From: a virus
Length of the DNA: 7,046 nt
Direction: 5' to 3' (one strand)
Virus record (IMG/VR): IMGVR_UViG_3300029462_000034
Span: 1-7,046 of that record
A program made the translations under genes and the position numbers. Below, piece by piece: positions 1,805 through 7,046 of the stretch. A model generated the notes under the pieces. That model was given only the letters and a program-made list of their open reading frames with translations, did not search any database and had not been told where the DNA came from. Every line of letters starts with the position of its first letter. The stretch's first letter is position 1.

Positions 1805-1812
1805 TTTTGCCT

Positions 1813-3270
1813 ATGTTGTCTAATATAATTAACTGGAGTGCTGCCGCTTTTGGCGGTACTCCTTTTCGTTTAAATAAGTGTACTGCTCTTGGTTCTGCTG
1901 CTGGTGGTGCTGCTGGTGGTGCTGCTGTTGGTGGTGTTCCTGGTGCTCTAGTTGGTGGTGCTCTAGGTCTTGCCGGTTCTTTGATTGGTGGTCTTTTTGG
2001 TAAACACAATACCGATAAGACTAATAAGTCGAACTATCAAATTATGCAAGAGCAGAATAAATTTAATAAAGAAGAAGCCCAAAAAAACCGAGATTGGCAA
2101 GAAATGATGTATCGTATGTTTGGTACGTCTTCTGCTAAGGCTGCTGATATGCGTGCTGCAGGTCTTAACCCTCTTCTTGGTGATGTTTCTGCTAGCGGAA
2201 ATGTTGGTAGTGGTGGTGCTGCTACTGCTGCTGAATCTGCTCAAATGATGCCTACCGATTATTCATTTATTGGTGATGCTGCTAATCGCGGTTTGGCTGC
2301 TTATAATACTACTCGTTCCGTTGATGCGTCTGTTTCTTTGCAGAAATCTCAAGAGAATGTTAATAAGTCTATAGAGGGTGTTAATATGGCTCAGAAAGGG
2401 CTTATGGAATCTCAATCCGCTATGCAAAAACTGACCTATAAGTTTGCTATGGATACGTATCAGAATCGATTGTTGCAAGAACAATTTCGGGCTGAATTGG
2501 AAAATTGGCGCGGTTTCGATGCTATGTATGATGCCCGTCTTAAAGCATTTAGTCTTTATAATGTTATGCCACAAGAGGTTGAAAAGAATGTTGCTCAAAC
2601 AATGTCTTTCTATGCTTCTGCCTTTCGTGATATTGCTGCCGGTAAATATACCCTTAAGCAAACCGAAAATTACGGTAAATGGTTATCTATTCAGCAGACG
2701 TTTGCCCATGCTGCTACTGTGCAAGGTCAGGCTGCCTTAATGCAAGGTCGTGCTGCCATAACAAATGCCAATGCCAATGCTAGTTATCTAAAACAGTTAG
2801 GTGGCTATTATGGTTCATTGATTTCGGGTCAAAACATGTCAAATGATATGCAGCGTTATTATACTGATTTTATGCTTGGTAGAATGCCTATTGGTAAGGC
2901 TGAGAGCATTCTTCGCCAAACACCTTATAAGCATTTGCTTGACTTGAACATTCAGCAAAATGAGTGGTCTTTGAACAAGTTGATGCAGGAGCCCGATTTG
3001 ATACGTTCTCTTAGTGGTATGTATAAATCAGAGACGTCTCTTACTAACAAGCGTGTTGATAGCTACGATACTGATAAAATCTTTGAGCGTGGTGAAAGTG
3101 TTACGCGTATGGTCAAGAATGTTTCTGACGGTATTAGTAACTTTACCCCTAAGCCTAAGTTTAAAAAAGGTTCTTCTACAGGTGGTGAACCTACACCACC
3201 GCCTAGCGGTAAATCTTGGCTTGATGCGTATCGTGAAAATCCTAATTATAGCCCTACTGGCTATAGATAA
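1813..3270 (+). CDS. VP2: Minor capsid / DNA pilot protein VP2 (phiX174 H-like)
   Basis: The ATG at 1813 is two codons after the track's TTG at 1807. The N-terminus has a Gly/Ala-rich hydrophobic segment, GSAAGGAAGGAAVGGVPGALVGGALGLAGSLIGGLFG (GxxxG glycine-zipper-like). It is followed by EEAQKNRDWQEMMYRMFGTSSAKAADMRAAGLNPLL, which matches the conserved ...AGLNP.L block of microvirus VP2 proteins. Its size (485 aa) and its position after VP1 fit this call. Confidence 0.85.
   Translation: MLSNIINWSAAAFGGTPFRLNKCTALGSAAGGAAGGAAVGGVPGALVGGALGLAGSLIGGLFGKHNTDKTNKSNYQIMQEQNKFNKEEAQKNRDWQEMMYRMFGTSSAKAADMRAAGLNPLLGDVSASGNVGSGGAATAAESAQMMPTDYSFIGDAANRGLAAYNTTRSVDASVSLQKSQENVNKSIEGVNMAQKGLMESQSAMQKLTYKFAMDTYQNRLLQEQFRAELENWRGFDAMYDARLKAFSLYNVMPQEVEKNVAQTMSFYASAFRDIAAGKYTLKQTENYGKWLSIQQTFAHAATVQGQAALMQGRAAITNANANASYLKQLGGYYGSLISGQNMSNDMQRYYTDFMLGRMPIGKAESILRQTPYKHLLDLNIQQNEWSLNKLMQEPDLIRSLSGMYKSETSLTNKRVDSYDTDKIFERGESVTRMVKNVSDGISNFTPKPKFKKGSSTGGEPTPPPSGKSWLDAYRENPNYSPTGYR
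1897..1935 (+). repeat. Tandem 12-nt repeat GCTGCTGGTGGT (2 exact copies plus a third with a GTT insertion) encoding (AAGG)n in VP2
   Basis: Direct reading gives 1897-1908 and 1909-1920 identical, and 1921-1935 = GCTGCTgttGGTGGT. A nearby GGTGCTCTA occurs at 1942-1950 and again at 1957-1965. Confidence 0.9.
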
Positions 3271-3276
3271 TAATTT

Positions 3277-3307
3277 AGGCGCAAAGGTAAAACCCTTGCG
3301 CCTTTTT
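3277..3307. terminator. Intrinsic terminator hairpin between the convergent VP2 (+) and 3308..3568 (-) genes
   Basis: AGGCGCAAAGG-TAAAA-CCCTTGCGCCT spans 3277-3303. That is 10 Watson-Crick pairs with one A.C mismatch and a 5-nt loop. It is followed on + by TTTTcTaTTTTT. It starts 7 nt after the VP2 stop and ends 5 nt from the stop of the minus-strand ORF. The U-tract is good for + and poor for - (AAATTATTA). Confidence 0.7.
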
Positions 3308-3568
3308 CTATTTTTCTACTTTAATCAGGATTTCTGTTACCTTTCGGTCTCCTTGAGCGGTCTTTTCGTTCTTGTAACAATATAGGCTACCTGCTCTTAC
3401 TTCTGTTGCGAATCCCATTTCTTTGTAATCGTTTTGAACTATATCGAATAAGTAATGTATAGCGTCTCTTCTTAGTCTGAAGAACTCGCCCATACCTAAG
3501 TATTTGTAATTTTGTTCTTTACTTGAAAGGCTTTCTGTTTGCTTGCTGTAATAATTCAATTTATACAT
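3308..3568 (-). CDS. Hypothetical 86-aa protein encoded antisense to all other genes
   Basis: It has a true ATG (CAT at 3566-3568 on +) and a TAG stop at 3308-3310 abutting the terminator hairpin. It is the only ORF of 70 aa or more lying wholly within 3271-4092 on either strand; only the 3' tail of the rejected +1 shadow ORF 3014..3385 reaches in. A Bacteroidetes-type promoter lies about 50 nt upstream. The protein is balanced and non-repetitive (K/E/Y-rich with a predicted helix GEFFRLRRDAIHYLFDIVQNDYKEMGF), unlike the Leu/Ser-rich shadow ORFs. Codons mostly end in A or C. I recognise no family. Confidence 0.6.
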   Translation of the reverse strand: MYKLNYYSKQTESLSSKEQNYKYLGMGEFFRLRRDAIHYLFDIVQNDYKEMGFATEVRAGSLYCYKNEKTAQGDRKVTEILIKVEK

Positions 3569-3619
3569 AGTCGTAATATTTAATTGTTTATTGTAAAAGG
3601 TCTTTCCTTTTATCTATTG

Positions 3620-3651
3620 CAAAGGTACGAATTTTCTCTGACACTACCAAA
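3620..3651 (-). promoter_or_regulatory. Candidate Bacteroidetes sigma-ABfr-type promoter for the antisense gene
   Basis: The minus strand reads TTTG (3651->3648), a 20-nt spacer, then TAccTTTG (3627->3620). This matches the published Bacteroides -33 TTTG / -7 TAnnTTTG consensus. The predicted leader to the ATG at 3568 is about 45-50 nt. Confidence 0.55.
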
Positions 3652-3791
3652 TAATTTTAGTTAAATATCTGTTAATCGTACGTTAAATAATGCAAACCCG
3701 TTTTTAGATAATTCTCATTCAACTTAAAATACCTTCCGTAAAAATCCATATTTTTTTATGAAATAATAAAAATTTATATTATACTATTAAT

Positions 3792-3858
3792 GTATCTGTT
3801 TTGTATTTGTGTGCGTGCGCATTTTATACGTACGTACACAATTTAACTAAACAGATAC
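3792..3858. repeat. 67-nt composite inverted repeat / hairpin with alternating purine-pyrimidine core
   Basis: The outer arms are perfect: GTATCTGTTT (3792-3801) and AAACAGATAC (3849-3858). The inner arms are TTGTGTGCGTGCGCAT (3807-3822) and ATACGTACGTACACAA (3826-3841). They give 13 Watson-Crick pairs, 2 G.T pairs and 1 C.A mismatch around a TTT loop. The inner arms are built from (GTGC)n and (ACGT)n tetranucleotide repeats, with strict Pu-Py alternation over 14 nt and 16 nt respectively. Confidence 0.85.
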
Positions 3859-3936
3859 TTTATATTGGTTTGTCTGCTAGAAAAACCTTAGCTTTGCGCG
3901 GAAAAGTTTATAACTTATTAGTAACTACCTTTTTAT

Positions 3937-3946
3937 GAAAATTTTC
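3937..3946. promoter_or_regulatory. Perfect 10-bp palindrome GAAAATTTTC, followed by a half-site repeat CGAAAATTCC (3950-3959)
   Basis: Direct reading. It lies in the non-coding region about 110 nt upstream of the + promoter. It is AT-rich, so chance occurrence is plausible. Confidence 0.3.
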
Positions 3947-3987
3947 TCCCGAAAATTCCTACTCTCTTGTTATGGGTAGGCAAAAGT

Positions 3988-4003
3988 GGGAATACATATT
4001 CCC
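3988..4003. promoter_or_regulatory. Inverted repeat GGGAATA-ca-TATTCCC (7+7 bp, 2-bp spacer), a candidate operator
   Basis: Direct reading. It is centred about 60 nt upstream of the -33 element of the + strand promoter. Confidence 0.35.
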
Positions 4004-4056
4004 TAATTACTGCACTTTTGTTCCCTGTAACTATATTCCTAAATAATGTTAACAAA

Positions 4057-4088
4057 TTTGGTAGTTCCAAAACTTCCTTTTATCTTTG
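4057..4088 (+). promoter_or_regulatory. Candidate Bacteroidetes-type promoter for the + strand transcription unit
   Basis: TTTG (4057-4060), a 20-nt spacer, then TAtcTTTG (4081-4088). The ATG at 4093 follows 4 nt after the -7 box, which implies a leaderless or near-leaderless first gene. I found no comparable consensus match in front of VP4, VP1 or VP2. Confidence 0.6.
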
Positions 4089-4092
4089 TGCC

Positions 4093-4308
4093 ATGAAAAA
4101 GGAAATTATACAAATTATCATCAAAGTAGCGCTGTATGCGCTCGGATTGATAGCTGCTTATTTTGGTGTCTCTGCTATGACATCATGCAGTACGTCTCAC
4201 AATGTAGATGCTAGTGGTCGCACTACTATTGTTACTGTTGATACCACAATTGTTAAACATAACGGCTTTGTCCGTTCTAAAAATTTTAAGCCTTATGGTG
4301 AATATTAA
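4093..4308 (+). CDS. Small putative lipoprotein (71 aa precursor, about 40 aa mature)
   Basis: MKKEIIQIIIKVALYALGLIAAYFGVSAMTSC|STSHNVDASG... has a basic N-terminus, a hydrophobic core and a relaxed lipobox (M-T-S-C, Cys32) of the kind common in Bacteroidetes. The mature part has NNT-biased codons like the core genes. The ATG at 4093 is chosen over the in-frame TTG at 3967 because a signal peptide must be N-terminal and the promoter lies inside that extension. The alternative reading is a signal-anchored membrane protein. Confidence 0.68.
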   Translation: MKKEIIQIIIKVALYALGLIAAYFGVSAMTSCSTSHNVDASGRTTIVTVDTTIVKHNGFVRSKNFKPYGEY

Positions 4309-4474
4309 ATCTCGCTGCTTCATTGTCGAAGTTAACAATGTTCAGTATGTTGTAAAGTATGGCAAAATTGATGAGTTCCTTTGTTTGTTTTTGCCTAGTG
4401 TTGTTATCATTTCTTCTATGATTACTTCTCCAGTATCTTGGGAACATGATTATCAATGGTATAAACGTATCTGA
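4295..4474 (+). CDS. Hypothetical small membrane protein (59 aa from ATG 4295; an alternative 88-aa form starts at ATG 4208)
   Basis: The ORF 4208..4474 is the only open frame covering 4309-4474. NNT codon bias typical of this genome begins only after 4295. Codons 4208-4294 mostly end in A or G and lie in the +1 frame of the lipoprotein gene. There is a hydrophobic segment FLCLFLPSVVIISSMI. The ATG at 4295 overlaps the lipoprotein 3' end by 14 nt. Confidence 0.5.
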   Translation: MVNIKSRCFIVEVNNVQYVVKYGKIDEFLCLFLPSVVIISSMITSPVSWEHDYQWYKRI

Positions 4475-4486
4475 TTTTTTTTGCTT

Positions 4487-4696
4487 ATGACTGCTAAAGA
4501 TTATTTGACTGCTCTCAAGGTTATTAGAGAAATTCAGCGGAAACAGGCATATTGTAGTGGTCAGTCTAAACCCTATCTTGCTGAAACATTGAAAGAGATT
4601 GAAATGTATTGTCCTTTGGATTTCTCTAAAAGTGGAGGTCGTGTTAACGATAAGGTTCTTTTAAGTTGTTATAATGGTAATTTATTTAGTTCATAA
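4487..4696 (+). CDS. Hypothetical 69-aa protein immediately upstream of VP4
   Basis: The ATG at 4487 is preceded by the track's TTG at 4481 and follows a T8 run (4475-4482). The TAA stop at 4694-4696 lies 2 nt before the VP4 ATG, suggesting translational coupling. The sequence MTAKDYLTALKVIREIQRKQ... is predicted helical and soluble. No family recognised. Confidence 0.6.
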   Translation: MTAKDYLTALKVIREIQRKQAYCSGQSKPYLAETLKEIEMYCPLDFSKSGGRVNDKVLLSCYNGNLFSS

Positions 4697-4698
4697 CT

Positions 4699-6252
4699 AT
4701 GGCTCTCTTTCCTCGTTGCAATAATCCTGTTCCTGTCGTTGGTCGTCATGGAGTTACTCTTGTTGGTTGCCACTCTTGTATTCAATGCCGTGTTGCTGCG
4801 CAGGAACATCTTTGCAAAATACTAGAGGTTGAAGCATCTAAACATCAATATGTTGAATTTATTACCAATACTTATGATGATTTACATTTGCCCTATATTG
4901 ATACTTCTTATTTGTACCCTTTTGGTTATGCCCTCCGCATACCTAATCGTGTAGTAAAAAAGTATAACAGAAGAACTAAAAGTTTTTACTTTGTAGAGGA
5001 TAAAATCTCTAAATCGTTTAAACTTACAAGTTTTGATACTGTAGACACTGCTCCTATGCTTCGTGATTATTATGCACGTATTGACAAATACTATAGCAGA
5101 TTTCCTTCTCGTTCTCGTGGTATAAGAAATAACTCTGTTGTTCCTATACTATGGTATGATGATATTAGAAAATATATAGGTCGTTTAAGAAAATGGTTTT
5201 TTAAAGAATATGGTGAAACATTACGGTACTACATTATTTGCGAGTACGGTTCACAATCATTCCGTCCGCATTATCATATCCTATTATTCCACGATTCGCC
5301 TAGAGCGAGAGCGGATTTTAGGAATGTTCGAACTTTGCCCCAATCAACCAAAGAAAATCCCCGAGAAATTTGTGTTAAACTCGATTTGGCTGATTTATGG
5401 GTCTACGGTGATACGACTTCAAAGGTTACAGACGGCAACATGCAGGAATATGTTAGTAAGTATCTTACACAACATTCTGACTTCCCTAGAGTGCTTGACA
5501 AGTTTCCACAAAGGAGTTTTCACTCAATCTTATTGGGTTCAAAGGTCAGAAATGAGGTTAGAGAATTACTCAAGGCTCGAGATTTCGAAACACTTACAAC
5601 AGATTATGTTGTTAACAAAAAAGGTGTGCGACGCCCTGTTTCCATGTCCGATGCGTATTACTCTCAATTTGCCGTTAAATTTACAGGTTCTTCCCTTTTT
5701 AATGTTGCAGAAACTTCTTCCCTTTTTCGTTCGGTGGTATACGTTGCCCGCCGTTTCTTCGCTACCAAAGGCGAAATCTATGATGACGGTCAAGTAAGGG
5801 AGTTTCTTATGTGGTTGCTTAAGCCTTCCACTGTTGATTTATATAAATATAATTATCAGTTTCGTGCTGTTCATTGGTATGCTGTCACTTTCGCTAAACC
5901 TATTTATAACAGTTCCGATTCTGTCAACCCTTTAAAATCGTTGCTTTATGCTGCACATCATCACTATTCGTTATCCTCCTATTTAGGTTTGGGTTTCTAT
6001 GAATGTCTTAAGTTACGTTTTGACTTCGTAGCTTGGAAGGATTATCTAAATATGATTCAGTATTTCCAAAATTTGGAAGATGACAAGTTATTTGCTTATG
6101 AAAATTATGCAAGTATGTCTCCATATACTGGAACTTATGATTTTAATAGTTTAAAGACACGGTCTATATTTCAGTATCAAGTTCAGAAAGCTAATATGGC
6201 TTATATTGAAAATATTAAGCACCGTGATGTTGTTGATTCTTATAAAAATTAA
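4699..6252 (+). CDS. VP4: Replication initiation protein VP4 (phiX174 gpA-like HUH rolling-circle endonuclease)
   Basis: It has an N-terminal Cys cluster (C7, CHSCIQC at 24-30, C39). Motif I is FITNTYD (nt 4858-4878). The HUH motif is RPHYHILLFH (His191/His193, nt 5269-5277). Motif III is EYVSKYL, with two Tyr three residues apart (Y251/Y255, nt 5449-5463), as with the paired catalytic tyrosines of phiX174 gpA. It is 517 aa. Confidence 0.93.
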   Translation: MALFPRCNNPVPVVGRHGVTLVGCHSCIQCRVAAQEHLCKILEVEASKHQYVEFITNTYDDLHLPYIDTSYLYPFGYALRIPNRVVKKYNRRTKSFYFVEDKISKSFKLTSFDTVDTAPMLRDYYARIDKYYSRFPSRSRGIRNNSVVPILWYDDIRKYIGRLRKWFFKEYGETLRYYIICEYGSQSFRPHYHILLFHDSPRARADFRNVRTLPQSTKENPREICVKLDLADLWVYGDTTSKVTDGNMQEYVSKYLTQHSDFPRVLDKFPQRSFHSILLGSKVRNEVRELLKARDFETLTTDYVVNKKGVRRPVSMSDAYYSQFAVKFTGSSLFNVAETSSLFRSVVYVARRFFATKGEIYDDGQVREFLMWLLKPSTVDLYKYNYQFRAVHWYAVTFAKPIYNSSDSVNPLKSLLYAAHHHYSLSSYLGLGFYECLKLRFDFVAWKDYLNMIQYFQNLEDDKLFAYENYASMSPYTGTYDFNSLKTRSIFQYQVQKANMAYIENIKHRDVVDSYKN

Positions 6253-6257
6253 TTATT

Positions 6258-7046
6258 ATGGCTAATAAAGTTTTAGGTATGCACCGCCTTAAGAATAAGG
6301 TAAATCGTAATGCTTTCGATTTGTCTCATCGACACATGTTTACCGCTCAAGTTGGTGAATTGCTGCCTGTATTTACTCAGTGGGTTAACCCTAATGAGAC
6401 GTTCAAAATTGGGTATAATGGTAAAACCCGTACCGCTGCCCTTAACACCGATGCATTTACTCGTATTCGTGAAAATATTCAGTACTTTTTTGTACCTTTT
6501 CAGTCTCTTTGGAAGTATTTTGAGCAGCAGGTTAATAATATGATTAAAGGTGACTCAGGACAAAATATTTCAAAGTTTGCTAGTAGTTCTACAGAGGCAT
6601 CTAAAATTTCTACTTCTCTTCCTTATGTTTCGTACGTAGATTTGGGTTTTTGGTTATCTTTAATGTTTAACCATGCTCTTGATGCTGTAGATACTTATTT
6701 TCATACTTATACTTCTGGTCGTTCTGCTGTTGGTTTTAAAGATTTCTGTGATTCTTCTACTTCATACAATGATGTCTTTGTTTGTGATGGCTATCGTTTA
6801 TGTCGTGCTGGTAAACTTTTAATGTCTCTTGGCTATGGTAATTTTAGTACCGTTATTCAGTATGATATTTATGCTATGGCTGAAGCGTTTGTTAGAATGG
6901 GTTCATCTTGGAATAAAACCGCTTTTTCCAATAGTTCTGTTTATGGGCTTAATCTTGTCGGGTTTGAATCTACTAAGGTATATAATAGTCCTAATTTGTC
7001 TATTTTACCTTTACTTGCTTATCATAAGATTTGCAATGACCATTAT
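6258..7046 (+). CDS. VP1: Major capsid protein VP1, 5' portion (runs off the window end and continues at nt 78 by circularity)
   Basis: This ORF is absent from the ORF track because no stop is reached. From the ATG at 6258 it reads MANKVLGMHRLKNKVNRNAFDLSHRHMFTAQVGELLPVFTQWVNPNETFKI...FTRIRENIQYFFVPFQSLWKYFEQ. These are the canonical N-terminal blocks of microvirus capsid proteins (N.FDLSH, G.L.P, YFFVP...W). My hand translation found no stop in 263 codons. Confidence 0.93.
   Translation, partial: MANKVLGMHRLKNKVNRNAFDLSHRHMFTAQVGELLPVFTQWVNPNETFKIGYNGKTRTAALNTDAFTRIRENIQYFFVPFQSLWKYFEQQVNNMIKGDSGQNISKFASSSTEASKISTSLPYVSYVDLGFWLSLMFNHALDAVDTYFHTYTSGRSAVGFKDFCDSSTSYNDVFVCDGYRLCRAGKLLMSLGYGNFSTVIQYDIYAMAEAFVRMGSSWNKTAFSNSSVYGLNLVGFESTKVYNSPNLSILPLLAYHKICNDHY
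6970..7046. repeat. Terminal redundancy copy 2 (circular-contig overlap)
   Basis: It is identical to 1-77 and lies in frame inside VP1, so it marks closure of a 6,969-nt circle rather than a biological terminal repeat. Confidence 0.97.

Follow-up and report, generated by a model that had tools for sequence, protein, structure and literature searches.

The VP2–VP4 interval of a gut microvirus genome: an antisense gene, a hairpin-rich spacer and three small genes

Genes and promoters of the VP2–VP4 interval

The window, i.e. the whole 7046-nt stretch of DNA that was analysed, represents a circular microvirus genome of 6969 nt with a 77-nt terminal redundancy. Around the interval under study it contains the following genes, together with two promoter motifs that lie within the interval:

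1807–3270, + strand: VP2
4699–6252: VP4 (Rep)
6258 through the junction to 1337: VP1
1349–1804: ORF of 151 aa
3620–3651, − strand: P_rev, a Bacteroidetes sigma-ABfr-type promoter motif, TTTGGTAGT-N-TACCTTTG
4057–4088, + strand: P_main, the sigma-ABfr-type promoter motif of the long + strand operon

Between VP2 and VP4 (3271–4698) are located a reverse ORF (3308–3568, − strand; rev86), 524 nt of non-coding DNA (3569–4092) and three small + strand ORFs, in agreement with a preliminary description of this DNA. All four small ORFs are real genes, as indicated by protein clusters and dN/dS for rev86 and by pN/pS for the + strand ORFs. Their products had no significant match in Pfam, PHROGs, NCBIfam or PADLOC and no sequence match in the PDB. 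The preliminary description treated the interval as a single accessory module. It is not one that travels as a unit: rev86 and its promoter are gained and lost independently, and the spacer and the three + strand genes are found in all complete relatives. Distant microviruses in which the reverse gene and the lipoprotein gene recur lack both the 59- and the 69-aa gene. Of the small ORFs, rev86 is lost or shortened in 16 of 22 close genomes, and the three + strand ORFs are conserved in close relatives. The stretch 3301–3660 is the only hypervariable part of the genome, with 10–42% identity between relatives versus ∼80–90% elsewhere. It is likely that 3271–4698 is a composite of three units that differ in their evolution: an antisense cassette, a control region and the start of the operon with its three small genes.

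The genome contains exactly two matches to the promoter consensus TTTG-N19-21-TAnnTTTG, at 3651–3620 (−) and 4057–4088 (+), versus 0.24 expected, and two sites were reached in 5 of 200 shuffled sequences. Both face outwards from the spacer, one on each strand, so the divergent transcription that had been proposed is probable on the basis of these Bacteroidetes-consensus motifs. A scan for sigma-70 promoters, a model that is wrong for the host, gave no enrichment. P_main is present in all 22 relatives with a fixed spacing to the ATG of the lipoprotein gene. When the start is placed by the −7 box numbering of PMC6847099, it falls on 4093, the A of this ATG, which predicts a leaderless mRNA. P_main would thus drive one long, probably leaderless + strand transcript that runs from the lipoprotein ATG through the 59-aa and 69-aa genes, VP4, VP1, the 151-aa gene and VP2 to a terminator at 3277–3303. 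We infer the actual transcription starts, including the leaderless one, from the motif positions.

The antisense gene rev86 and its probable exchange between lineages

The antisense cassette (3304–3657) and the adjoining terminator contain, besides P_rev, the following elements:

3277–3303, both strands: bidirectional intrinsic-terminator hairpin, common to the convergent VP2 (+) and rev86 (−)
3308–3568, − strand: rev86, encoding an accessory protein of 86 aa from an orphan family, with a predicted beta-beta-alpha-beta-beta-beta fold
3569–3615, − strand: predicted 47-nt 5′ UTR of rev86 with a hairpin near its 5′ end at 3595–3611 (AAAAGG/CCTTTT)

The terminator stem comprises 12 bp, including seven G-C pairs (RNA fold −18.4 kcal/mol, z −5.2), and is kept in relatives L001 and L002. 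On the + strand this G+C-rich hairpin is followed directly, as in intrinsic terminators, by a T-tract at 3304–3317 (TTTTTCTATTTTTC) that overlaps the last codons of rev86. On the rev86 side, the hairpin (3303–3277) begins 4 nt past the stop codon and the − strand U-tract is weak. The rev86 start site was placed by reference to the −7 box, with the G at −5 (PMC6847099).

At 90% identity the rev86 family forms 234 clusters, every one from contigs of ∼7 kb, with a constant length of ∼86 aa and 19 invariant columns. An exhaustive profile search of 1.84 billion proteins returned only 20 representatives at 50% identity, all of them short stand-alone proteins; a 780-aa repeat protein (E 3e-4) was judged spurious. 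The AF2 model of rev86 has a pLDDT of 85. The family profile had no match among PDB sequences, the best Foldseek match of the fold in the PDB was meaningless (E 0.014, TM 0.30), and matches in BFVD were confined to uncharacterised phage proteins. None of the 62 family members, each scanned singly, had a significant match in Pfam, PHROGs, NCBIfam or PADLOC. An ORF that is short, lacks database annotation and is missing from many relatives could also be a chance antisense ORF in non-coding DNA. However, the constant-length clusters, the invariant columns and dN/dS values of 0.10–0.22 at saturated dS (0.8–1.6) refute this explanation, against which the confident AF2 fold and the conserved promoter also speak, and we assign it virtually no likelihood.

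Among 22 close genomes, rev86 is full-length in six, reduced in five to a 3′ remnant, these remnants deriving from two allele types, and absent from 11. P_rev was found only with intact rev86 (in the window, L001, L003 and L018). Homologues that are 41–52% identical to rev86 occur in five pig-gut microviruses (L022–L026) on the same strand, in the same position convergent with VP2 and with the same promoter, which precedes the homologue in L023–L026; the palindrome of the leader at 3595–3611 is conserved in L023, L024 and L026. VP1 and VP4 of L022–L026 are about 25–33% identical to those of the window, and rev86 itself is 37–88% identical within the window's own clade. Extended DNA similarity between the window and L022–L026 (E < 1e-6) was found only at 3301–3691 and, in L024, in the 5′ part of the lipoprotein gene, with a few short and far weaker similar segments elsewhere. 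Rapid positive selection as the source of rev86 divergence is ruled out by dN/dS of 0.1–0.2 with saturated dS, which instead indicates old alleles shuffled by recombination. As judged from sequence comparison, these alleles are probably exchanged among distantly related gut microviruses.

The segment 3304–3657 behaves like a moron: it is dispensable and has been repeatedly lost by deletion. Morons were reportedly described by Hendrix and colleagues as autonomous promoter–gene–terminator units between conserved genes of tailed dsDNA phages. Similarly, rev86 has its own predicted host-type promoter directly upstream and a terminator directly downstream, sits at a gene boundary, varies in presence among close, collinear relatives and has a phylogeny decoupled from that of the core genes. 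Unlike these units, rev86 belongs to an ssDNA microvirus of 7 kb, runs opposite to every other gene and has its terminator in common with VP2. The cassette would consist of a host-type sigma-ABfr promoter, a 47-nt leader and the 86-aa gene, and would end at the main-operon terminator behind VP2; it occupies what is probably the only spot in the circle where an insertion spares the operon.

Repeats and hairpins of the proposed intergenic control region

The following elements are located between the two promoters:

3660–3686, no strand assigned: iteron-like array of three GTTAA(A)T repeats with 11–12-nt spacing
3687–3787, no strand assigned: AT-rich stretch, conserved and unstructured, with the lowest G+C content of the genome (∼28%)
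3788–3862, + strand: HP1, an imperfect hairpin of 75 nt with the loop ATTTTAT and two G·T pairs on the + strand only
3867–3887, + strand: HP2, a small conserved hairpin of eight pairs, 99% paired
3925–4021, + strand: conserved hairpin cluster that includes HP5 (3980–3988 paired with 4013–4021)

The triple GTTAA array is found once in the window, versus 0.00 matches expected. It lies upstream of P_rev and ∼370 nt from P_main, and it is conserved in relatives without rev86 and in the distant L023, L024 and L026. The repeats adjoining P_rev could be operators.

In the preliminary description, the interval was likened to a regulatory switch, with control of lysogeny or immunity among its candidate roles. 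In such a switch, a repressor-like rev86, diverging from the main operon, would act on operators in the spacer. The divergent promoters are compatible with such a switch, as is the GTTAA array, which directly precedes P_rev and accompanies rev86 into distant genomes. In addition, proviruses are known for Alpavirinae (PMC3091885), and L030, a distant lipoprotein-bearing genome, lies inside a bacterial contig, flanked by direct repeats of 18 nt that mark its integration. However, rev86 contains no HTH or RHH motif and matches no DNA-binding family, its AF2 fold is an orphan, 16 of 22 close genomes lack it or carry only a truncated form yet retain the control region and P_main, and the GTTAA repeats persist without it. 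The genome contains no ORF for an integrase or recombinase; the best match to a generic bacterial dif consensus (21/28) was reached by 97.5% of shuffled sequences; the att repeat of L030, sought in the window and its relatives, scored at chance; and a VP4 search of 185,579 species genomes revealed no provirus of a close relative. A switch of this kind, of the CI/Cro type, is very improbable. The clade resembles the Alpavirinae and the Bacteroidetes microvirus (BMV) proviruses (PMC3091885) in the gene order VP4-VP1-x-VP2, gut source, Bacteroidetes-type promoters and a genome of >6 kb, and differs from them in that neither a dif-like att site nor an integrated close relative was found. We infer from the sequence data that the rev86 product would be a host-directed accessory factor, acting in anti-defence, host takeover or exclusion, and not the phage's own repressor.

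The preliminary description also attributed structure to the entire 524-nt spacer. This held for the right-hand ∼300 nt (3780–4095; ssDNA folding z-score −7.1) but not for 3569–3785 (z −0.6). The 33-nt core of HP1 is exact in 19 IMG/VR microviruses, but conservation at this site is inflated because an exact 33-mer within HP1 had served to collect most of the relatives. Two genomes selected independently of this core, L027 and L028, correct the bias in part, and their HP1 carries C-to-T changes that preserve T·G pairs. Compensatory changes were found in HP1 of L019 (T-A to A-T) and in HP5 (T-A to C-G in five genomes and G-C to A-T in one). The cluster at 3925–4021 is tandemly duplicated in L015 and L028. 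Overall, the hairpin region contains 59 pairs that are 98.9% paired among the relatives, with three compensatory pairs, a number reached in 5 of 500 shuffles, and its one-sided changes are G·T-compatible on the + strand. Covariation is thin because the region, with 90–95% identity among relatives, barely varies. Indels within it rule out a coding function, and a 45-aa ORF at 3801–3938 was rejected as a gene since its frame is broken by 1–2-nt indels in relatives. A tRNA scan of the window found none, and comparison of the window with the 30-nt origin of phiX174 scored at chance.

The segment 3652–4056 would be the only intergenic control region of the genome and, judging by the two recognisable promoters, would be untranscribed, with its array of hairpins predicted to form in the packaged + strand. 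In other microviruses, a role as minus-strand origin has been proposed for conserved hairpins in the intergenic DNA that precedes Rep (PMC9865509). The hairpins here are likewise conserved, intergenic, formed on the packaged strand and accompanied by compensatory substitutions. The segment probably carries a signal that directs synthesis of the complementary strand once the ssDNA has entered, and possibly also the Rep origin or a packaging signal. Among complementary-strand origins of Microviridae, the primosome-assembly hairpin of phiX174 (in the F–G spacer) and the reekeekee- and roodoodoovirus hairpins (PMC9865509) were used for comparison. The hairpins here resemble them in lying between genes ahead of Rep, in their compensatory changes and invariant loop, and in pairing on the strand that is packaged; they differ in having no sequence similarity to them and in forming an array of about six over 270 nt beside an iteron-like repeat.

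The hairpin region 3788–4056 might instead act as RNA, either as a structured 5′ leader, as an sRNA of the + strand operon or as part of a read-through transcript. The G·U-compatible changes are equally expected from an RNA of + polarity, the RNA folding z-score is −5.3, and ten relatives carry a second promoter-like site, TTTG-N21-TAGCTTTG, at 3864–3896. However, the window lacks the −33 TTTG of this site, Bacteroidetes −7 boxes tend to avoid the G at −10 (PMC6847099), and L001 has a 1-nt deletion inside its −7 box. In addition, the site is preceded or overlapped by HP1 and HP2, and the universally conserved P_main is located downstream of every hairpin. No Rfam family matched either, the only hit in the window being a spurious one to mir-466 (27.8 bits versus a threshold of 85) caused by a long GT/AC-rich hairpin. 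A role as RNA is improbable by these measures.

The interpretation as an ssDNA signal also invites comparison with the intergenic region of geminiviruses and other CRESS-DNA viruses, which are rolling-circle ssDNA replicons with an HUH Rep and in which divergent promoters similarly flank a conserved hairpin together with iterons. This likeness is an analogy only, as the segment contains neither the TAnTATTAC nonanucleotide nor a phiX-like ori sequence. Rep of the phiX174 type nicks a non-hairpin origin.

The three small genes upstream of VP4 and wider implications

The operon begins with three small genes:

4093–4308, + strand: lipoprotein precursor of 71 aa with a signal peptide and the lipobox (L/M)-(T/S/A)-S-C, in which Cys32 is invariant
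4295–4474, + strand: 59-aa protein with one hydrophobic segment (residues 29–47)
4487–4696, + strand: 69-aa protein, soluble and mostly helical, with its stop codon 2 nt before the VP4 ATG

The presence of the spacer and these three genes in all complete relatives defines them as core for the clade. Substitutions in the three ORFs concentrate at third codon positions, with pN/pS of 0.18–0.28 indicating purifying selection, versus 0.14 for VP4. The lipoprotein, which had been proposed as putative, has the basic n-region (MKKE..K), hydrophobic h-region (VALYALGLIAAYFGV; maximum hydropathy 2.13) and lipobox of a lipoprotein precursor, and Cys32 is unchanged in all 17 sequences aligned. Its mature part of ∼39 aa contains the invariant residues H36, G42, D50, T51, H56 and G58. 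It forms 843 clusters (pN/pS 0.28), and homologues with 48–61% identity are located directly upstream of VP4 in L022–L025 and L030. A match to the YgdI/YgdR lipoprotein (E 0.01, 15.7 bits versus a cut-off of 42 bits) was rejected, as it does not extend beyond the signal peptide and lipobox. The start of the 59-aa gene overlaps the lipoprotein gene by 14 nt; the gene is intact in 20 of 20 relatives (pN/pS 0.18), and its product has no homologue in L022–L026. The 69-aa protein, whose gene closely precedes VP4 as anticipated, forms 1168 clusters (pN/pS 0.19), likewise has no homologue in L022–L026, and gave an AF2 model of three helices with low confidence (pLDDT 59).

The lipoprotein gene is the first after P_main, in line with the earlier suggestion that envelope-directed genes are promoter-proximal. 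As the preliminary description had noted, the genome contains no recognised lysis gene elsewhere. Searches of Pfam and PHROGs revealed no peptidase, endolysin or holin family; phiHBP1, an isolated Bacteroides microvirus, carries an M15 peptidase (PMC13064476). From this context, the lipoprotein most likely acts on the envelope and is required in each infection; host lysis is its best candidate role, and receptor masking or exclusion the second. A two-component spanin (Rz/Rz1) was rejected, as the hydrophobic segment of the 59-aa protein is central or C-terminal, no coiled coil is present, and no endolysin or holin was found. Alternatively, the lipoprotein, with or without the 59-aa protein, could serve in receptor masking or superinfection exclusion like T5 Llp or Cor, with lysis carried out by something unrecognised, such as an overprinted gene. 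A small lipoprotein that is first in the operon, so probably early, and conserved across lineages fits such a role, and, as noted in PMC9239249, searches of this kind would miss an overprinted lysis gene of the phiX174 E type. However, the protein has no similarity to Llp, Cor or any PHROG, and an essential role fits at least equally well with a gene that is found in every lytic-type genome in which no other lysis candidate exists. We regard exclusion in place of lysis as possible but rather unlikely. The lipoprotein, as the favoured lysis candidate, resembles T5 Llp, phi80/N15 Cor, Rz1 o-spanins and phiX174 E as a very small envelope-targeted protein of a lytic-type phage. A further likeness to small phage lipoproteins is the overlap of its gene with one for another small membrane protein. 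It differs from them in the lack of homology, in the absence of an endolysin, holin or i-spanin partner, and in its mature part of only ∼39 aa with an invariant His/Asp/His. In the most far-reaching interpretation, which we consider doubtful, the antisense cassette may be horizontally exchanged among gut microviruses of Bacteroidota and act as an anti-defence or host-takeover factor, and the universally conserved lipoprotein may represent a new kind of single-gene lysis protein in diderm Bacteroidota.

Microviruses count among the most abundant phages of the gut. To our knowledge, almost nothing is known outside phiX174 about their transcription, complementary-strand priming, lysis or accessory cargo. 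None of the findings overturns current understanding, and the protein functions are putative throughout. For a clade that is very common in the human, dog and pig gut, the analysis provides a testable transcription map with one probably leaderless operon, a terminator and an optional antisense gene. The conserved ssDNA hairpin array is an origin candidate, and the small lipoprotein is a lysis or exclusion candidate in a lineage without the M15 peptidase of phiHBP1. Microviruses have been claimed to be genetically isolated (PMC9239249), and a small gene with its promoter that is common to deeply divergent microviruses and repeatedly lost bears on this claim. If true, rev86 would move between lineages whose capsid and Rep are ∼25% identical, against the view that exchange across families is at most rare.

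Gene content of the region between VP2 and VP4

The window (7046 nt) spans a microvirus genome that is circular and 6969 nt long, the remaining 77 nt being a terminal redundancy; VP1, a 151-aa ORF, VP2 and VP4 are all carried on the + strand. Within 3271–4698, the ORF map exactly matches the layout given in the preliminary description, with one reverse gene, 524 nt of non-coding DNA and three small + strand genes.

Features of the genome
6258 through the junction to 1337, +, VP1, 682 aa
1349–1804, +, acidic ORF, 151 aa
1807–3270, +, VP2, pilot protein (PHROG pilot-protein matches)
3308–3568, −, rev86, reverse ORF, 86 aa
3569–4092, non-coding DNA (spacer), 524 nt
3651–3620, −, P_rev, predicted promoter 52 nt upstream of the rev86 ATG
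3660–3686, iteron-like repeat GTTAA(A)T, three copies at 11–12-nt spacing
3788–3862, HP1, predicted hairpin; the hairpin array begins at 3788
3867–3887, HP2, predicted hairpin
3925–4021, hairpin cluster that includes HP5
4057–4088, +, P_main, predicted promoter directly 5′ of the lipoprotein ATG
4093–4308, +, lipoprotein precursor, 71 aa
4295–4474, +, 59-aa ORF with a single hydrophobic segment, overlapping the lipoprotein gene by 14 nt
4487–4696, +, 69-aa ORF, ending 2 nt 5′ of the VP4 ATG
4699–6252, +, VP4, Rep protein (PF23343 and phrog_942 matches)

The four small ORFs had no significant match in Pfam, PHROGs, NCBIfam or PADLOC, and the equivalent of 3271–4698 is unannotated or 'hypothetical' in the two close GenBank relatives, PV067919 (human, 87.6% identity) and MG945894 (dog faeces, 84%). 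The preliminary description had considered that the small ORFs might not be conserved or might be interrupted; nearly every relative keeps the three + strand ORFs intact, with substitutions mostly at third codon positions and pN/pS values of 0.28 (lipoprotein), 0.18 (59-aa) and 0.19 (69-aa), the 5′ part of VP4 giving 0.14. At 90% identity, the rev86 family forms 234 clusters, almost all of its members being 86 aa long and on ~7-kb contigs, and its dN/dS is 0.10–0.22. Judged by these sequence signatures, all four ORFs are real genes. A strong terminator-like hairpin was also found inside the VP2 coding region, ~25 nt in (1835–1862, +; 12 bp, 7 of them G-C, then TTTTCGTTTA); this hairpin could lower expression of VP2 compared with that of VP1 and the 151-aa gene.

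Relatives were collected independently of rev86 (n = 21; 2 from GenBank and 19 from IMG/VR, the latter retrieved by an exact 33-mer from the big hairpin). In the whole-genome alignment, only 3301–3660 is hypervariable (10–42% identity to the window), and the remaining spacer (3661–4080) is 81–95% identical, equal to or above coding regions. Full-length rev86 is present in six of the 22 genomes (the window, L001, L002, L003, L010 and L018), five others (L005, L011, L015, L016 and L017) keep a C-terminal remnant adjoining the terminator and derived from two allele types, and 11 lack the gene. Protein clusters number 234 for rev86, whereas the lipoprotein has 843 and the 69-aa protein 1168, in agreement with a patchy rev86 and universal + strand genes. 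The view of 3271–4698 as a single non-core module travelling as a unit is therefore not tenable, as rev86 is hypervariable and dispensable, whereas the neighbouring spacer and three + strand genes are found in every complete relative.

Predicted transcripts and the structured spacer

The primary-sigma consensus of Bacteroidetes consists of a −33 TTTG and a −7 TAnnTTTG (PMC4747536, PMC6847099); in its refined form, the −7 box has no G at −10 or −9, and a G at −5 sets the numbering (PMC6847099). With 19–21-nt spacing, this consensus occurs at exactly two sites in the genome, both strands counted (0.24 expected; two reached in 5 of 200 shuffles), namely P_rev and P_main. The two share the initial TTTGGTAGT, and their −7 boxes, TACCTTTG and TATCTTTG, both comply with the exclusion of G at −10 and −9. 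The divergent transcription described earlier is thus supported at the level of motifs, by two outward-facing promoters, one per strand. P_main is present in 22 of 22 genomes, with invariant spacing to the ATG in all relatives, and P_rev occurs only with an intact rev86. Because the G of the −7 box is placed at −5, transcription from P_main should start at 4093, the A of the lipoprotein ATG, and yield a leaderless mRNA.

The terminator hairpin 3′ of VP2 (3277–3303; 12 bp, G+C-rich, −18.4 kcal/mol, z −5.2) is followed on the + strand by TTTTTCTATTTTTC, and on the − strand it starts 4 nt past the rev86 stop. The simplest map suggested by these motifs has three parts: one long + transcript would begin at 4093 and go round the circle as far as about 3304–3317, one short antisense transcript would extend from about 3615 to about 3270–3276, and about 400 nt (3652–4056) would be transcribed from neither promoter. 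The T-tract of the VP2 terminator (3304–3317) also forms the opposite-strand codons for the conserved rev86 C-terminus (...IKVEK), and this overlap may be the reason why deletion remnants always retain the 3′ end of rev86. In L016, the terminator stem (equivalent of ~3277–3303) is duplicated.

The GTTAA(A)T array gave one match (0.00 expected), is retained in relatives without rev86 and also in the distant L023, L024 and L026, and is directly followed by the AT-richest stretch of the genome. The spacer had been described as structured, which holds for its right part (3780–4095, ssDNA folding z −7.1) but not for 3569–3785 (z −0.6). The hairpin region is non-coding, since it contains 1–2-nt indels and frame-breaking changes among relatives, and its divergence is several-fold slower than that of the synonymous positions of the adjacent genes (pS 0.2–0.46). 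Pairing holds in 98.9% of cells over the 59 predicted pairs, with slid controls all lower at 33–58%, and compensatory double changes occur at three pairs, a count reached in 5 of 500 shuffles. On the + strand, nearly all one-sided changes allow G.T(U) pairing, and on the − strand these changes would be C.A mismatches; C-to-T changes in L027 and L028, both selected without the hairpin, likewise allow G.T(U) pairing on the + strand. Since the pairing fits the + strand, which is the packaged strand, an ssDNA-level role is favored, above all in complementary-strand priming. Such priming is the established role of the phiX174 F–G hairpin. In other microviruses, conserved hairpins 5′ of Rep have been suggested to act in this way (PMC9865509). 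Ten relatives carry a weaker promoter-like site (3864–3896), which makes it conceivable that the region acts as RNA, rather than in the favored ssDNA form. With iterons, a conserved hairpin and divergent promoters on either side in an HUH-Rep replicon, the layout resembles the geminivirus/CRESS intergenic region, and by this analogy the Rep origin may also lie within the spacer.

In L015 and L028, a stretch of about 95 nt within the hairpin block (equivalent of ~3940–4030) is tandemly duplicated, the L015 copy including a second P_main. The spacers of the distant pig-gut genomes L022–L026 and of L030, a distant integrated relative (e.g. L030:6140–6700), are 800–1000 nt long, with structured G+C-rich blocks that are conserved (CCATACTATGAAAAACAC..., GCTTCCGTGC..GGACGGAAGTAGGGTTATAGGGGCGACGCCCCTAATC) as well as hairpins of alternating purines and pyrimidines. 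These blocks had no match in Rfam and so may constitute an undescribed structured element.

The rev86 cassette and the lysogeny question

The rev86 homologues of L022–L026 are 41–52% identical to that of the window, although VP1 and VP4 reach only about 25–33%. In all five genomes, rev86 directly adjoins the 3′ end of VP2 and converges on it from the strand opposite VP4–VP1–VP2; in four of the five it has the same full-consensus promoter at its 5′ side (pattern TTTGG/A T..(N)..GTACCTTTG). L024 (MG945831) carries two tandem diverged copies downstream of VP2 (reverse-complement 4771–5034 and 5067–5330; 49% and 40% identity to the window's). When the window was compared with these genomes by blastn (E < 1e-6), extended similarity was confined to 3301–3691 (67–70% over 360–400 nt, E 1e-20 to 1e-38), with L024 also matching in the 5′ portion of the lipoprotein gene; elsewhere there were a few short and much weaker segments. 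Within the window's own clade (VP4 86–93% identical), rev86 is only 37–47% identical in L001, L002, L003 and L018; identities in L027, L028 and L029 are 88%, 70% and 67%. Because dS between alleles is saturated (0.8–1.6) while dN/dS stays at 0.1–0.2, the sequences argue for allelic lineages that are old and have been reshuffled through recombination or transfer, and not for runaway positive selection. The identity between the window and L027 over 3100–4800 is mosaic: it is 92–97% from the 3′ end of VP2 up to the lipoprotein gene, then drops to 81% within the 69-aa gene and 75% where VP4 starts, which indicates a recombination breakpoint within the region.

The three genomes L002 (6769–6903, −), L018 and L029 have a further small reverse ORF (41–44 aa, MKVMVTIKFINVNGKGQITVKD..., 93–100% identical) in the same slot, between rev86 and the conserved spacer, and this ORF is additional cargo at the rev86 hot spot. 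A predicted promoter of its own, a terminator shared with VP2, presence/absence pattern, sharing with distant lineages and allele shuffling together give the rev86 cassette the apparent properties of a moron, an autonomous promoter–gene–terminator unit, in the sole position where the co-directional circular operon tolerates insertion.

The rev86 alignment has 19 invariant columns, and the AF2 model is confident (beta-beta-alpha-beta-beta-beta, pLDDT 85). The rev86 model had no neighbor in the PDB (best E 0.014, TM 0.30) and matched only uncharacterized small phage proteins in BFVD, and among 1.84 billion proteins searched exhaustively with the rev86 profile there were just 20 representatives, each short and stand-alone. 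Since rev86 is expected to be expressed early from its host-type promoter, is dispensable and is exchanged among lineages with a common ecosystem, a host-directed accessory role, e.g. anti-defense, takeover or exclusion, is a plausible though tentative assignment.

The preliminary description had also compared the layout to a regulatory switch for lysogeny or immunity. This is very improbable, because rev86 is not repressor-like and is missing from most close relatives. The genome contains no integrase, and neither a dif-like site nor an att site of the L030 type was found in it; no proviruses of close relatives were found in 185,579 species genomes. The lipoprotein-bearing L030 (L030:241–6826; CAVBFV010000077.1, a MAG labelled Lachnospiraceae; order lipoprotein–VP4–VP1–ORF–VP2) is integrated between 18-nt direct repeats (TTACCATAATACCGGTTA, at about 241–259 and 6808–6826), which fits earlier accounts of Alpavirinae proviruses (PMC3091885) and has no direct bearing on the window's clade. 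To the right of this provirus is an AAA_21/AbiEii-like ATPase gene. The bin label may be wrong, as the −7 box of the right-flank gene (TATATTTG) is of the Bacteroidetes type.

The lipoprotein gene and the nature of the region

The lipoprotein shows classical n- and h-regions and a lipobox whose Cys is invariant, and its mature form of about 39 aa contains invariant H36, G42, D50, T51, H56 and G58, of which His36, Asp50 and His56, invariant across lineages with otherwise 44–60% identity, may form a metal or ligand site. Homologues (48–61% identity) lie directly upstream of VP4 in L022–L025 and provirus L030, where the 59-aa and 69-aa genes have no counterpart; the lipoprotein gene thus appears older and more widespread than these two. 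As stated earlier, no lysis function is otherwise identifiable: Pfam and PHROGs searches of the genome found no peptidase or other recognizable lysis gene. The sole cultured Bacteroides microvirus has an M15 peptidase (PMC13064476). Given this lack in the genome, the lipoprotein, as a conserved, promoter-proximal, envelope-targeted mini-protein, is the best candidate for lysis, albeit a rather uncertain one. Receptor masking or exclusion, on the model of T5 Llp, is the second choice and is unlikely. The 69-aa protein is helical and its gene is tightly coupled to VP4; its AF2 model was too poor for a fold search, and a replication or packaging helper would be a guess.

In summary, the observation is confirmed and its earlier interpretation partly supported. 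The region 3271–4698 is composed of a moron-like antisense cassette, a putative microvirus control/origin region and clade-core small genes, and is of a known kind in an unusual setting. More novel are the antisense orientation of the cassette, the lipoprotein gene heading the operon as a predicted leaderless gene, and the conserved promoter and gene unit common to deeply divergent microviruses, in contrast to the reported rarity of exchange between microvirus families (PMC9239249).
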